Positions 4,160 through 10,546 of a stretch of DNA of 47,453 nucleotides are shown here, one piece after another. The stretch comes from a virus. Its lineage: Duplodnaviria > Heunggongvirae > Uroviricota > Caudoviricetes. Position 1 is the first letter of the stretch, and every line of letters starts with the position of its first letter. The notes below the pieces were generated by a model that worked only from the letters and a program-made list of their open reading frames with translations, was not told where the DNA came from and did no database searches. A program made the position numbers and the translations under genes. The stretch is from IMG/VR virus record IMGVR_UViG_2778261248_000001; one strand, written 5' to 3'.

Positions 4160-4521
4160 TATGCTCCAGCCTCCGGCGCTTTTGGCATTACTGCCCAGTG
4201 AGTGATATTGAAGTTTTCAAGGTCCCCGACCTGAAATGTCCACTGCCATTCTCCGGTTTCTTTTTGTCCCCAGGTGTACCAGAGAGAACGCCAGCCAATC
4301 AGCCAGCCTTCTCCGTTAGCATCAAATAACAGAACACTTTCATTTGCTGGTGGCAGTTCAGCTGACACTGGTATTATTTTGTTTTCCAGTGCCGCACATT
4401 TAGCTTCAAGCGCGTCGAATTTACGTACCAGGTACTCAGCATTTGTTTCGTTCACTTTCAGATCTCGCGGTACACATTTCCCGCGAAGAAACCCTTCCAT
4501 TTCGAAAACATTCATGCGCAT
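4159..4521 (-). CDS. Phage early protein (DUF551-like C-terminal motif)
   Basis: 120 aa; C-terminal ITHWAVMPKAPE resembles the DUF551 signature; overlapping start/stop with neighbours. Confidence 0.55.
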   Translation of the reverse strand: MRMNVFEMEGFLRGKCVPRDLKVNETNAEYLVRKFDALEAKCAALENKIIPVSAELPPANESVLLFDANGEGWLIGWRSLWYTWGQKETGEWQWTFQVGDLENFNITHWAVMPKAPEAGA

Positions 4522-5048
4522 TTGCGTAACTCCGATAACTCGTTAAAACGTTCCATAAACATCCCGTAGGCATGGCTAGGTGCCAGTGGAATCACGTTGA
4601 ACATCTCTGTTGCCGGGATGCCTTCCAGTACAGGCCAGAAAGAGCCATCATCAAGCCCGAGATCGCGGCGTTCGGTTGCCAGCATGATAAGATCGGCATA
4701 TTTCACGGGCGTACTCATAACTGGGGGTAACCCGTATTTCTCACGGATTACGGCGTCAATTTTTTCTTCCATCCGTTTATAGTCAGGAAGAAGGCGTTTC
4801 AGTGGAGCGGGAATATCCTGGCAATACGCTTCTGTTGCATCATGCATTAACGCTTCAAAAGCAAATTCCTGCGGCACCAGCTGGCTGCAAAGCACCGCAT
4901 GTTGGGCGACACTGTAGAAGTGAGAAAGATGACCGGCAAAGCGGCAGATATTTGAAAGGGAAACCGCGATATCGTTAATCACGATGTCGTCTTTATTTAT
5001 CTTGTCATAATAAAAATGCTTCCCGGAAAAAGTTTTAATAAATGACAT
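4512..5048 (-). CDS. yfdR: HD-domain phosphohydrolase (YfdR-like 5'-deoxynucleotidase family)
   Basis: ATG at 5048 with GGAG 8 nt upstream gives 178 aa (ORF track used an upstream GTG at 5075); His and HD...E residues (FAGHLSHF, LMHDATEAY) consistent with HD hydrolase; resembles the CPS-53 prophage YfdR as I recall it. Confidence 0.65.
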   Translation of the reverse strand: MSFIKTFSGKHFYYDKINKDDIVINDIAVSLSNICRFAGHLSHFYSVAQHAVLCSQLVPQEFAFEALMHDATEAYCQDIPAPLKRLLPDYKRMEEKIDAVIREKYGLPPVMSTPVKYADLIMLATERRDLGLDDGSFWPVLEGIPATEMFNVIPLAPSHAYGMFMERFNELSELRKCA

Positions 5049-5175
5049 TTTGTTCTCCACGTATATGCGCTGCACCGCGCTGAGTTTGGGTAAAAGGAAG
5101 CCCTCACCATCCGGTGATTATTGAGTTAATTACGTTTCCATAAATGCCCCCGCAGGGGCATTTGCAGTAATGAAA

Positions 5176-6000
5176 TCAGGCGGTGAAAGTACCAATAAAG
5201 GTTTCTACTTTGCTGTCTTTGAATTTCTCAACAAGCAGATCACGAAATTCGTTAGCCATATCTTCCTGCACCGCTTCCAGCTGAATAATGCGCAGAACCA
5301 GTACAGGACGATCGCCAGTGATAATGCTGAGGCGTAATTTAAACGGACGTTCTTTCAGACCTTCAAACGGAACGCATTTAAATTCAAATGCCACTGGCAT
5401 AATGTCTTTGGTCTTCGCTTCGACAGATTCCATCAGGGAGCGTTTGCCGCTGAAGTCATTATCTTCAAAATCAGCGGTCTGGTTTGCTTCAATCGTGATT
5501 TTACGGACTGCCGCAGCCGCTTTTGTTGCCTGAATAGCGTCACCATTAGCATCAAAGCCCACAAGGTAGTCGGCCCAGTCTTCAATCCATTCTGCCAGTG
5601 ACTTCTGGGAGTTACGCTCGCCGTTAACAGACAACAGGGCAGAGAACGGTGCTGTCTTTTTCAGTTTGAGAGTGGCGGTGTTATCTGCGTGACCTGGTTC
5701 ATCAATAGTACCCAGGTTAAGTACACTGACGGCACGCATATTATCAGCATCGATAAAGCAGCGGGTGCCTTCATCTGCAAGATCTTTAGAATAACGGGTA
5801 AAGTCATCGATGCTGGCAGTGGAAAGCGCACCACGGAAACGGAAGCGATTTAAATTAAATTTTTCCAGATCATGAATGCGGAAATTCTCAGGCAATGCCA
5901 CAGCATCGGCACCAATATTACTGATAATTTCATTAACACCCTGAGCAGAAATAAGGGCATGGATTTGATTAATTGTGGTTGCGTCTAAGTTCTGAGACAT
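5176..6000 (-). CDS. yfdQ: YfdQ-like phage protein (DUF2303 family)
   Basis: 274-aa ORF; length and sequence character match my recollection of CPS-53 YfdQ; gene order P-Q-R as in that prophage. Confidence 0.55.
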
Positions 6001-8657: not shown

Positions 8658-9490
8658 ACAGTTTAACGGCAAATAACCGTTTGTCGCAACAGCTGGTGGT
8701 CAGTGTCGCTGAACACCTGTTGTTACGGCATGAATGCAGATTACCAAATCACCTGGCTGTAAGTAACCACAGAGAACTTTACCTGACTGTGGGGGGCGAG
8801 TTGTGCGGGAACTTAACCGCTGGTTTCGTGACGGAAGAGGGCTTTATGTCCATGTTATTCGTTGGGAACCAGAAACACAGCGCGTTATCTATCTTCGCAA
8901 AGACTACCCGCATGAGTGCTTTAGTCCTTTGTGGAAATTCAGGCGTGATTTTGTTGAGTGTGAAGGACCACCAGCACATTGATTCTGCCATTCCGGGACG
9001 TTACACTGTTCAGGCACCTTATAAAGCGGGTGACGGGATTGGCGTCCTGGAAATGTTATCGGCGATATATGACGCGCCAGCGTCTTTTTTATCGTCTGCG
9101 TCTGTGCACACCCAAATTATGGTGGGCTGGACGGGGGCACCGAAAGGTGCGCCGGTTTCCGATAACGCCGGTTACGCCAACCCCGTTCAGTTCACCACCA
9201 GCGAAATTGGCGTTTCCGGTGGTGAAGGTAATTCACTGTTATCGGAGGCTGCCATCATGGCTACTGTCCCAGCCCTCACTCGTCTGAATGATGAAGACTT
9301 ACATAAACTCAGTTATGTAACAACTGCACTACGTGCTCTGCGCAAGGTAACTCTTTCGGATCCGCAGGCGCATCAGGTTTTGGTAGAAACCCTTCTTAAC
9401 TTGCAGGCTGAACGTATTCGTCTGGCGGATAAGGCTAATTTTCATATTCACCGTCTCCTGAATATCAGCGGAGGGCATCGTCATGCTTAA
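8654..9490 (+). CDS. Hypothetical phage early protein
   Basis: 278-aa ORF, ATGA start/stop overlap with upstream gene; alternative-frame ORFs in the same span look like out-of-frame artefacts. Confidence 0.45.
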   Translation: MNSLTANNRLSQQLVVSVAEHLLLRHECRLPNHLAVSNHRELYLTVGGELCGNLTAGFVTEEGFMSMLFVGNQKHSALSIFAKTTRMSALVLCGNSGVILLSVKDHQHIDSAIPGRYTVQAPYKAGDGIGVLEMLSAIYDAPASFLSSASVHTQIMVGWTGAPKGAPVSDNAGYANPVQFTTSEIGVSGGEGNSLLSEAAIMATVPALTRLNDEDLHKLSYVTTALRALRKVTLSDPQAHQVLVETLLNLQAERIRLADKANFHIHRLLNISGGHRHA

Positions 9491-9719
9491 TCCGTTGATC
9501 CTCAATATTTGCCGTTTGCTTCAGCGTAAAAAAACATCAATTCCTACAGTTGGGCAGTGGTACACCACGCCTGCAGGGCATGTTCTACGTGTTAGCCTGG
9601 TTGACCGTGAATGTCAGAAGGTGATTTGTGAACCGCTGGGCCGTAATTACCGCATCAGTATGCCGCTTATAGCCTTTTGCTCCGGAAAAAACATGAAGCA
9701 TCTCGGAGGTGCAGCATGA
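9483..9719 (+). CDS. Small hypothetical protein (78 aa), translationally coupled
   Basis: Start overlaps the upstream stop and stop overlaps the next start (ATGA); otherwise unsupported. Confidence 0.3.
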   Translation: MLNPLILNICRLLQRKKTSIPTVGQWYTTPAGHVLRVSLVDRECQKVICEPLGRNYRISMPLIAFCSGKNMKHLGGAA

Positions 9720-10546
9720 GTATGGAGCTGATGGTTAAAGCGATGAAAATTCGAGTGGGTAATCCATTGCGAAAACTGGTTCTGATCAAGCTGGCTGATA
9801 ATGCCAGCGATCAGGGTGAGTGCTGGCCCAGCTACCAGCATATTGCTGACCAGTGCGAGATTAGCAAACGTTCTGTGATGAATCATATTGCGGCCCTTTG
9901 TGATTCCGGGCTGGTAAAAAAAGTCACCCGGAAAGGTGAAAAAGGTAACTCAAGTAATATCTATCTCCTTCATCTTGATGGTGCAGGAGATTCACTAGGG
10001 GGTAGTGCAAATAATTCACTATCTGGTGCAGCAAATTCACCAGGTAGTGCAGGAGTTGCACCAGGGGGTGGTGCAGGAGATTCACCCAGAACCAGTCACT
10101 CTTTTGAACCAGTCAAAGAACCAGTCAAAGAACCAGTCAATGAACCAATAGCTGTTGGTGCATCTGCTGATGAGTCTGTGCGAGTTCGTTCAAACCGACC
10201 GGAATACTCTCCGGAGTTTGAGCAGGCATGGCTGGCATACCCCAAACGTGCTGGTGGCAATTCAAAATCTGCAGCCTTCAAAGCCTGGAAAGCCCGTTTG
10301 AATGAGGGGGTAAAACCCGAAACCATGCTGGAAGGTGTGAAACGCTACGCGGGCTGGGTATCTGCGATGGGTAACAGCGGCACACAATTTGTGAAACAGG
10401 CTGTCACGTTCTTTGGTCCGGATCGTCATTTCGAAGAATCCTGGGAAGTTCCTGCGGTATCTGCAGCCAGACGCGAGGACCCGTACTTCAAAGCCAGTTA
10501 CGACAACGTGGACTACAGCCAGATCCCGGCAGGATTCAGGGGGTAA
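9716..10546 (+). CDS. Replication initiation protein (N-terminal HTH domain, low-complexity linker, C-terminal domain; lambda O-like organisation)
   Basis: ATG 9716 after GGAGGTG; N-terminal LVLIKLADNASDQGECWPSYQHIADQCEISKRSVMNHI HTH-like region; Gly/Ser/Ala/Pro linker encoded by repetitive DNA. Confidence 0.6.
   Translation: MSMELMVKAMKIRVGNPLRKLVLIKLADNASDQGECWPSYQHIADQCEISKRSVMNHIAALCDSGLVKKVTRKGEKGNSSNIYLLHLDGAGDSLGGSANNSLSGAANSPGSAGVAPGGGAGDSPRTSHSFEPVKEPVKEPVNEPIAVGASADESVRVRSNRPEYSPEFEQAWLAYPKRAGGNSKSAAFKAWKARLNEGVKPETMLEGVKRYAGWVSAMGNSGTQFVKQAVTFFGPDRHFEESWEVPAVSAARREDPYFKASYDNVDYSQIPAGFRG
9975..10145. repeat. Iteron-like direct repeats inside the replication gene (candidate origin)
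   Basis: About five 21-24-bp units each ending in (A/T)TTCAC or TGCAC (GGTGCAGGAGATTCAC occurs twice), followed by three tandem GAACCAGTCAAA 12-mers. Confidence 0.4.

Follow-up and report, generated by a model that had tools for sequence, protein, structure and literature searches.

The window analysed here is the whole of a 47,453-nucleotide stretch of viral DNA (Caudoviricetes; IMG/VR record IMGVR_UViG_2778261248_000001), and its source is an E. coli prophage of the SfV/CPS-53/"Eru6" type. We propose, with a probability of about 0.78, that the replication origin of this prophage has its core at about 9979-10149 and that this region is situated, similar to the origin of phage lambda, within the linker-coding part of the replication initiator gene (9716-10546, + strand). 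This candidate origin consists of an array of five iterons, a conserved box of 37 bp and a tract of tandem 12-mers. The proposal is carried by the nucleotide conservation of the iteron arms and of the box in homologous genes, and by the co-variation of the iteron arms with the recognition helix of the initiator.

Iteron array in the initiator gene

The five iterons are 19 bp long, lie in 9979-10087 (nucleotides 264-372 of the 831-nt initiator gene) and have the consensus T-R-GTGCA-N5-T-K-CAC-Y-A. All of them match this pattern: iteron 1 (9979-9997, TGGTGCAGGAGATTCACTA), iteron 2 (10003-10021, TAGTGCAAATAATTCACTA), iteron 3 (10024-10042, TGGTGCAGCAAATTCACCA), iteron 4 (10045-10063, TAGTGCAGGAGTTGCACCA) and iteron 5 (10069-10087, TGGTGCAGGAGATTCACCC), whose last 2 bp are also the first 2 bp of the conserved box. 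Their centres are 24, 21, 21 and 24 bp apart. In each iteron five to six of the seven arm positions follow a dyad symmetry, and iteron 4 has the best dyad among the five. A preliminary description of this DNA, made from its letters alone, had noted about five units of 21-24 bp in the linker-encoding part of the gene, and the five 19-mers at these distances bear this out.

The core pattern GTGCA-N5-TKCAC is found six times in the 47.4-kb window, namely at the five sites on the + strand, one of which also matches on the - strand. All matches lie within 9981-10085; 0.36 matches are expected by chance, and none of 100 shuffled sequences reached six. Likewise, GGTGCAGGAGATTCACC with up to three mismatches is matched four times in the window compared to 0.08 expected matches. 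The repeats of the window are all in frame and encode (G/S)A-xx-(S/A)(L/P), a stretch rich in Gly, Ala, Ser and Pro, and then EPVK repeats. Since the encoded peptide falls in residues 91-161, for which the AlphaFold2 model has a predicted local distance difference test score (pLDDT) of about 30, the repeats are located in a predicted disordered linker between the N- and the C-domain.

Conservation of the repeats in homologous genes

For comparison we used homologs from annotated phages and from 80 prophage loci of bacterial genomes sampled at one genome per species, about 90 genes in all. Their hosts include Pseudomonas, Rahnella, Xenorhabdus, Photorhabdus, Shewanella, Aeromonas, Marinomonas, Gilliamella and Avibacterium, and the GC content of the genes ranges from 0.36 to 0.62. 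Essentially every homolog contains three to seven repeats with a period of 21-24 bp at about nucleotides 260-380, directly after the winged-helix domain. The same architecture is present in the named phages SfV, ST64B, PhiR49_2, 24B, ZF40, RAH1, S137 and mEp013 and in two Vibrio phages; of the phages with names, only Salmonella phage SF6 deviates, with a single repeat copy.

The spacings found in the homologs are 21 bp (83 cases), 24 bp (74), 22 bp (37) and 23 bp (36). In 39 of the 83 genes one or more spacings cannot be divided by three, a typical series being 23, 22, 21, 24, and for mEp013 the spacings are 23, 22 and 23. Where a spacing is off frame, one copy of the same DNA motif is read in another frame. 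The Pseudomonas homologs share the recognition helix of the window protein (EISKRSVMNHIAALCDSGL in locus L102), and their N-domains are 75-81% identical at the protein level with a third-position identity of 25-49% at identical residues. These genes have five TRGTGCA-N5-TKCACYA sites at nucleotides 269-377, the second one in another frame. The iteron motif is therefore kept though the synonymous sites are saturated, which argues for selection on the DNA. In the iteron logo the arms are conserved including the wobble bases and the central N5 varies freely; the logo is partly circular because the copies were chosen by their arms. Judged from the sequences, this comparison shows that the repeats are selected at the DNA level and not as peptide.

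Close relatives of the window protein have 2, 5, 8 or 9 iteron units (proteins of 250, 272/276, 294 and 302 aa, respectively). Such copy-number variation is typical of iterons, and the variants with nine, eight or two units look like products of unequal recombination inside the array. One relative of 247 aa has neither the fifth iteron nor the box and the 12-mers.

Co-variation of the iteron arms with the recognition helix

The recognition helix of the window protein (EISKRSVMNHIAAL) is situated within the N-domain at about residues 51-64. For pairs of proteins we compared the identity over the 23 residues that begin with the recognition helix with the identity of the iteron arms and obtained a Spearman coefficient of 0.505, which was reached by none of 2000 Mantel permutations, a test that controls only partially for shared ancestry. 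The first 45 residues, used as control, gave a coefficient of 0.137. Thus, the iteron arms co-vary with the recognition helix of the initiator. Helices with S(K/R)RSV go along with iterons of the type GTG(C/A)A...T(G/T)CAC, and helices with RSTVK...HIRELEKAG with GGGC(A/G)G...CCC; the iteron GGGGCAGGAGCTGCCC of phage 24B, a perfect dyad, is of the latter type. The helix DRSTVRKHIKQL is paired with GTGTAGGCC...AGCAC, CSKSAV with TGTGCC...GGCAC, and SKRSVMRHI with the Erwinia-type iteron GTGACAcagaGTCAC.

Conserved 37-bp box and tandem 12-mers

The conserved box (10086-10122, CCAGAACCAGTCACTCTTTTGAACCAGTCAAAGAACC) abuts the last iteron. It comprises two direct GAACCAGTCA copies 17 bp apart, encodes RTSHSFEPVKEP and has the consensus CCAGAAyCAGTCACTCTTTTGAAyCAGTCAAwGAACC. 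Both the internal repeat spacing of 17 bp and the distance to the last iteron are fixed. In most of 88 homologs the box shows zero to five mismatches whatever the host and over the whole range of gene GC content from 0.36 to 0.62; it is kept near-identical in phages ranging from those of Pseudomonas (62% GC) to those of Gilliamella (36% GC) and occurs in Vibrio prophages as well. In mEp013, AACCAGTCA is present in another reading frame. Right after position +37 of the box, where unrelated C-domains start, conservation falls to background.

Codon usage was compared in 41 non-redundant genes. At conserved residues of the N-domain the commonest codon is used only 50% of the time (47 columns with two to six codons each). 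The codons of the box are invariant: Arg is encoded by AGA in 37 of 37 genes, Ser by AGT in 39 of 39 and, at its other position, by TCT in 37 of 37, Thr by ACC and Pro by CCC in 32 of 32 each, His by CAC in 39 of 39 and Glu by GAA in 41 of 41. At the same time the box tolerates non-synonymous C-to-T changes, which replace Pro by Ser or Thr by Ile and frequently affect the two repeat copies jointly. Invariant codons next to tolerated amino acid changes show selection on the nucleotides. A translational pause at rare codons was considered as the reason for the codon invariance and rejected, since the common codons ACC, GAA and CAC are equally invariant. Structured RNA was rejected as well, because the tract folds worse than shuffled sequence: the box/12-mer single strand is unusually structure-free (z = +1.63), and 196 of 200 shuffled sequences fold at least as well.

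The box is present in single copy in 139 phage records and 120 viral contigs. In each of the 113 cases that could be analysed an HTH_36 N-domain precedes it in the same reading frame, and the box is found only in the HTH_36 initiator family. A linkage of the box to the C-domain was rejected: the O protein of phage Stx1_14040 has the same C-domain with a different N-domain, and there is no box.

The tandem 12-mers (10106-10149) consist of two copies of GAACCAGTCAAA and one of GAACCAGTCAAT, followed by the truncated unit GAACCAAT at 10142-10149; a further GAACCAGTCA is situated at 10089-10098. Tandem Repeats Finder reports 10106-10147 with a period of 12, 3.5 copies, 96% matches and a score of 77. 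Near-identical relatives of the window from a scan of viral contigs were used to follow the polymorphism of this tract. Close relatives contain one, two, three or four 12-mer units, resulting in genes of 807, 819, 831 and 843 nt; two units are commonest and the window has three. The iterons of the near-identical relatives are nearly constant, 70 of 74 matching at all five and four having a point change in one unit. By their sequence the 12-mers are a copy-number-variable expansion of the second repeat of the box. The three tandem 12-mers that the preliminary description had placed after the iteron units are thus indeed present (10106-10141), but they do not form an element separate from the rest, being a polymorphic expansion of the family-wide box.

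The O protein of the Stx1a phage Stx1_14040 (1348-2256 of locus L175) combines the C-domain of the window protein with an unrelated N-domain. Its linker region has repeats of its own, of the type GGGAAACC, and then a tandem array of 12-mers (ACAGAGAATACT, three to four copies). Short tandem 12-mers following the binding repeats may therefore recur in origins of this kind.

The initiator protein and its gene neighbourhood

The initiator gene encodes 276 aa and is annotated as a RefSeq coding sequence in a 100% identical E. coli chromosome. The protein matches the Pfam family HTH_36 (PF13730) with an E-value of 2.9e-11 and 43.4 bits (cut-off 25 bits) and phrog_270, "replication initiation protein", with an E-value of 1.7e-88 across residues 3-275. 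Other PHROG families cover the halves separately, the N-terminal half as "replication initiation O-like" and the C-terminal half as "DnaD-like helicase loader" and "primosomal protein". DnaD_N (PF21984) reached 23.1 bits, which is under its cut-off of 27 bits, and no NCBIfam entry matched the protein above cut-offs.

In the AlphaFold2 model residues 1-89 (9716-9982) form a confident winged helix with H-H-H-H-E-E topology (pLDDT 78-92), the only winged-helix domain of the model. Residues 165-276 (10208-10546) form a helical C-domain of moderate confidence; from its separate PHROG families and its occurrence in other phages we presume that it is a module for recruitment of a helicase or loader. 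Foldseek returned generic winged-helix proteins only, with weak E-values of 0.02-0.06, among them the DnaD N-domain 2v79 (0.04) and the winged helix of Cdc6/Orc1; for the C-domain it gave no identity, because the model is mediocre there. Searches of PDB sequences yielded no match with the single protein and nothing useful with a profile. The lambda O family PF04492 (Phage_rep_O) gave no match at E <= 0.01, and hhalign aligned the N-domain profile with lambda O over 9 columns only (probability 3.8%). By sequence comparison the initiator is thus not detectably homologous to lambda O.

In 76 homologous loci the next gene downstream codes for a DnaC/IstB-like protein in 28 cases, for lambda P in 13 and for DnaB in 2, i.e. 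43 loci in total. The annotated phages show the same picture, with DnaC-like and DnaB genes in PhiR49_2 and phiP27, DnaB in ZF40, a primase-helicase in 24B, SF6 and S137, and lambda P in RAH1. The orf39 of SfV is 97% identical to the window gene and the only annotated replication gene in the complete genome of this viable phage. The assignment as replication initiator gene made in the preliminary description therefore agrees with HTH_36, phrog_270 and the replication-gene neighbours.

The C-domain of the window protein also occurs in PhiR49_2, phiP27 and Stx1_14040, where DnaC-like and DnaB genes lie downstream. The last 30-40 residues of this domain (10460-10546 in the window) vary with the genes downstream. 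Genes without helicase genes behind them (window, SfV, ST64B) have the tail ...REDPYFKASYDNVDYSQIPAGFRG, and the tail is ...GGGRQRQVDVL(A/S)GLGAMSDKFGKSS(N/D)KLTF where DnaC-like and DnaB genes follow (PhiR49_2, phiP27), the tail of Stx1_14040 being a close variant of the latter. The tail may determine the helicase system that is recruited.

Proposed function of the region

We infer protein binding, origin firing, the site of unwinding and helicase recruitment as follows. Dimers of the N-terminal winged helix would bind the five dyad-symmetric iterons. As these are about two helical turns apart, the bound dimers would line up on one face of the DNA and could form a complex similar to the lambda O-some. 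This nucleoprotein complex would destabilise flanking DNA, most likely at the GAAYCAGTCA box and the 12-mer tract, which we regard as the likeliest unwinding site because of the fixed distance to the last iteron, the direct repeats, the structure-free single strand and the lowish duplex stability. The C-terminal domain would then bring in the replicative helicase. Since neither the prophage nor SfV encodes a helicase or a loader, the host DnaB-DnaC would have to be used.

Within the gene, the box has a median duplex stability at the 7th percentile (83 genes). In 30 of the 83 genes the least stable segment coincides with the box; in another 30 this segment precedes the box by 100-200 bp, close to where the array starts or just before it. 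In the window, the nearest-neighbour stability profile places the least stable 30-bp segment (30% GC) at 9938-9967 in the left flank of the array, which makes it an alternative candidate for the unwinding site. A scan for sigma-70 promoters found none at the site. Rfam has no family there apart from a chance match to mir-875 (22 bits; gathering score 84 bits), and among resemblances to IHF, CRP and boxA sites, checked by eye only, none fits well.

Several points weigh against the proposed origin. Besides the circularity of the logo and the partial control by the Mantel test stated above, the five units of the window are all in frame, so that the argument from frame independence rests on the homologs. 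A strongly AT-rich unwinding element is not evident; the box and the 12-mer tract have 42-46% GC and are only at the 20th-33rd percentile of duplex stability in the window, and the least stable spot, at 9938, lies on the opposite flank from the box. No DnaA box is nearby, as the three TTWTNCACA sequences of the window are all more than 7 kb away. In this prophage the initiator gene is not followed by a helicase or loader gene; PerC and Dam genes come next, as in SfV. The SfV record annotates operators and terminators and no origin, and the searchable literature contains no experimental evidence of binding or origin function for any member of the family. No origin is mentioned in the papers on Eru types or in that on the 24B genome. 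No open-access paper that prints the motifs was found; an earlier description in subscription journals is possible.

Alternative explanations

Three alternatives were considered. The first concerns only the box, which could be a recombination linker joining modules of N-domain plus iterons to varied C-domain and loader modules without taking part in initiation. In favour of this, conservation is lost precisely at the 3' end of the box, at the beginning of the unrelated C-domains, and the box is found with many C-domain types. However, the near identity from Pseudomonas to Gilliamella would require that gene flow was confined to 37 bp or that the sequence is selected directly, and the internal direct repeats at fixed 17-bp spacing and fixed distance to the last iteron and the C-to-T changes that are often paired in both copies speak against it as well. 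We therefore regard this explanation as unlikely.

Second, the repeats could be sites of the winged-helix protein for regulation, i.e. for an autorepressing roadblock or control of the downstream early genes, with the origin situated elsewhere. Binding inside the transcription unit is expected to hinder the initiator gene and the downstream PerC, Dam and RusA genes, and the lack of a nearby AT-rich tract or DnaA box and of an encoded helicase loader would be in line with a regulatory role. On the other hand, homologs occupy the slot of an initiator, with DnaC-like, lambda P, DnaB or primase-helicase genes immediately behind them, SfV has no other annotated replication gene, the array and the box occur once per phage genome, and the geometry equals that of the lambda origin. 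Autoregulation and origin function are, moreover, not mutually exclusive. We regard a purely regulatory function as unlikely, too.

Third, the repeats could be a by-product of slippage that made a low-complexity Gly/Ala/Ser/Pro linker, with any selection acting on the peptide; although all units of the window are in frame, the encoded G/A/S/P-rich peptide is predicted to be disordered and the number of 12-mers varies between close relatives like a simple variable-number tandem repeat, we consider this very improbable in view of the out-of-frame units with the same DNA arms in 39 of 83 homologs, the arms kept including wobble positions across lineages with saturated synonymous sites, their co-variation with the recognition helix, the N5 spacer varying freely despite altering the peptide, and the invariant box codons.

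The reading as an origin core can be extended, more tentatively and as a possibility rather than an expectation, to the whole family. The array and the box may represent a distinct and very widespread class of origins of gammaproteobacterial prophages, including SfV-like phages and the Stx2a and Stx2c "Eru6" phages. The box might then be a sequence-specific element for unwinding or helicase loading, read on single-stranded DNA by an invariant part of the HTH_36 protein or by a factor shared by all these hosts; it might enable "solo" initiators to capture the host DnaB-DnaC with no loader encoded by the phage, and the number of 12-mers might tune the strength of the origin.

Comparison with known replication origins

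Iterons inside the initiator gene are a textbook arrangement. As in the lambda origin, dyad repeats of about 19 bp lie inside the initiator gene between the parts for a DNA-binding N-domain and a recruiting C-domain, at a spacing of about two turns (the annotated iterons of lambda inside O are 20, 24 and 23 bp apart, those of the window 24, 21, 21 and 24 bp), and the gene is located in the early rightward operon after cII. In addition, 13 of the 76 homologous loci pair this N-domain with a lambda-P gene. The preliminary description had already likened the arrangement to lambda with its iterons in the inter-domain linker, and the predicted linker, the DNA-level selection and the lambda-like spacing fit this comparison. 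The differences are the other iteron sequence, the lack of homology to O and the lack of a P or loader gene in the prophage; the place of the 80% AT tract of lambda is taken by the sequence-specific 37-bp box, which is selected at the nucleotide level.

Iteron plasmids (RK2 TrfA, F RepE, pSC101 RepA, R6K pi) have a winged-helix initiator, direct iterons about 22 bp apart and 13-mers in the unwinding element. Their short-repeat element is melted and bound sequence-specifically as single-stranded DNA by the Rep protein. The window resembles them in the winged-helix initiator, the direct iterons and the neighbouring short direct repeats, and our suggestion of single-strand binding at the GAAYCAGTCA box follows the same model. 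In contrast to the window, with iterons inside the gene, one modelled winged-helix domain and no DnaA box nearby, these plasmids have iterons outside the rep gene, two winged-helix domains and the usual DnaA boxes.

Temperate phages of lactococci and other Gram-positive bacteria (e.g. TP901-1 with ORF13) have DnaD-like initiators with essential repeats inside their own gene. The window protein shares with them the in-gene repeats, and its winged helix may resemble the DnaD N-domain, with a sub-threshold score for DnaD_N and a weak fold match to 2v79. Hosts and repeats differ, and membership in this group is not shown at the sequence level.

The origins of P22 gene 18 and phage L gene 18 have type-specific repeats inside the gene of the ori-binding protein, which differ between related initiators (PMC8022706). 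The window resembles them in the repeats within the coding region and in the same type-specific co-variation measured here. However, the gene 18 proteins are described as relatives of lambda O and are followed by a DnaB-type helicase gene (PMC8022706), whereas the window protein belongs to HTH_36 and stands alone.

The replication region of the "Eru6" Shiga-toxin (Stx) phages is the same module as that of the window. In these phages an HTH_36 protein has been described as the product of the first or second gene adjoining cI, with a Rha/Ash protein as its neighbour (PMC8951638). That study describes proteins only and mentions neither an origin nor iterons nor the conserved box (PMC8951638). Up to now, only the proteins of such "non-lambdoid" replication regions have been catalogued (PMC8951638). 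New beside the textbook arrangement are the breadth of the family, the co-variation of helix and iterons, the "solo" initiator without loader and the nucleotide-invariant 37-bp box. The box represents clear nucleotide-level selection hidden in a coding region and a one-per-genome marker for this class of prophages. The co-varying pairs of helix and iteron could serve as a natural code for DNA recognition by winged helices. The candidate origin provides concrete predicted binding sites to mutate and would lead to ori-plasmids for studying the takeover of the host replisome by a phage without helicase or loader.

Distribution and prophage setting

The 1.3 kb around the repeats are 100% identical to E. 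coli strain CEA212U, where the element adjoins yjjG. The identity of this region is 97-99% to the phages 2H10, Ayreon and SfV and to Stx2c phages, and 97.5% to Stx2a_WGPS2, the reference phage of the Stx2a "Eru6" type. Of 5426 complete E. coli genomes, 2722 match the 1.3-kb region, and in 879 of these the match spans 80% or more of its length. The module is thus common in E. coli, and it also occurs in Stx2c and Stx2a converting phages and in the serotype-converting Shigella phage SfV; after induction, the dosage of the Shiga-toxin gene is driven by phage replication.

The same module is present in NZ_CP148393.1, a 44.6-kb circular record from a finished E. coli assembly that has no PLSDB replicon type. 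This record is compatible with episomal replication and does not prove it. Other circular records of 34-54 kb, deposited as plasmids, carry the module as well. Such phage-sized circular "plasmid" records are probably episomal or induced phage genomes.

The early rightward operon consists of a cro-like gene, a CII-like gene (CP76), an Ash-family gene, a 78-aa open reading frame, the 276-aa initiator gene (9716-10546), PerC/YfdN, Dam and RusA. The 78-aa reading frame (9483-9719) overlaps the start of the initiator gene and matches phrog_1153 (unknown function, E-value 6e-42), and small open reading frames are found in the same upstream position in many of the initiator homologs. On the minus strand the prophage contains yfdR and a gene of the yfdQ family at about 4424-4960 and 5088-5912, as mapped from the identical E. 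coli chromosome. YfdR of CPS-53 is reported to bind DnaA, and over-expression of yfdQ-yfdR-yfdS-yfdT to inhibit chromosomal initiation (PMC4776307). Such inhibition of host initiation could suit a phage that has to borrow the host helicase.

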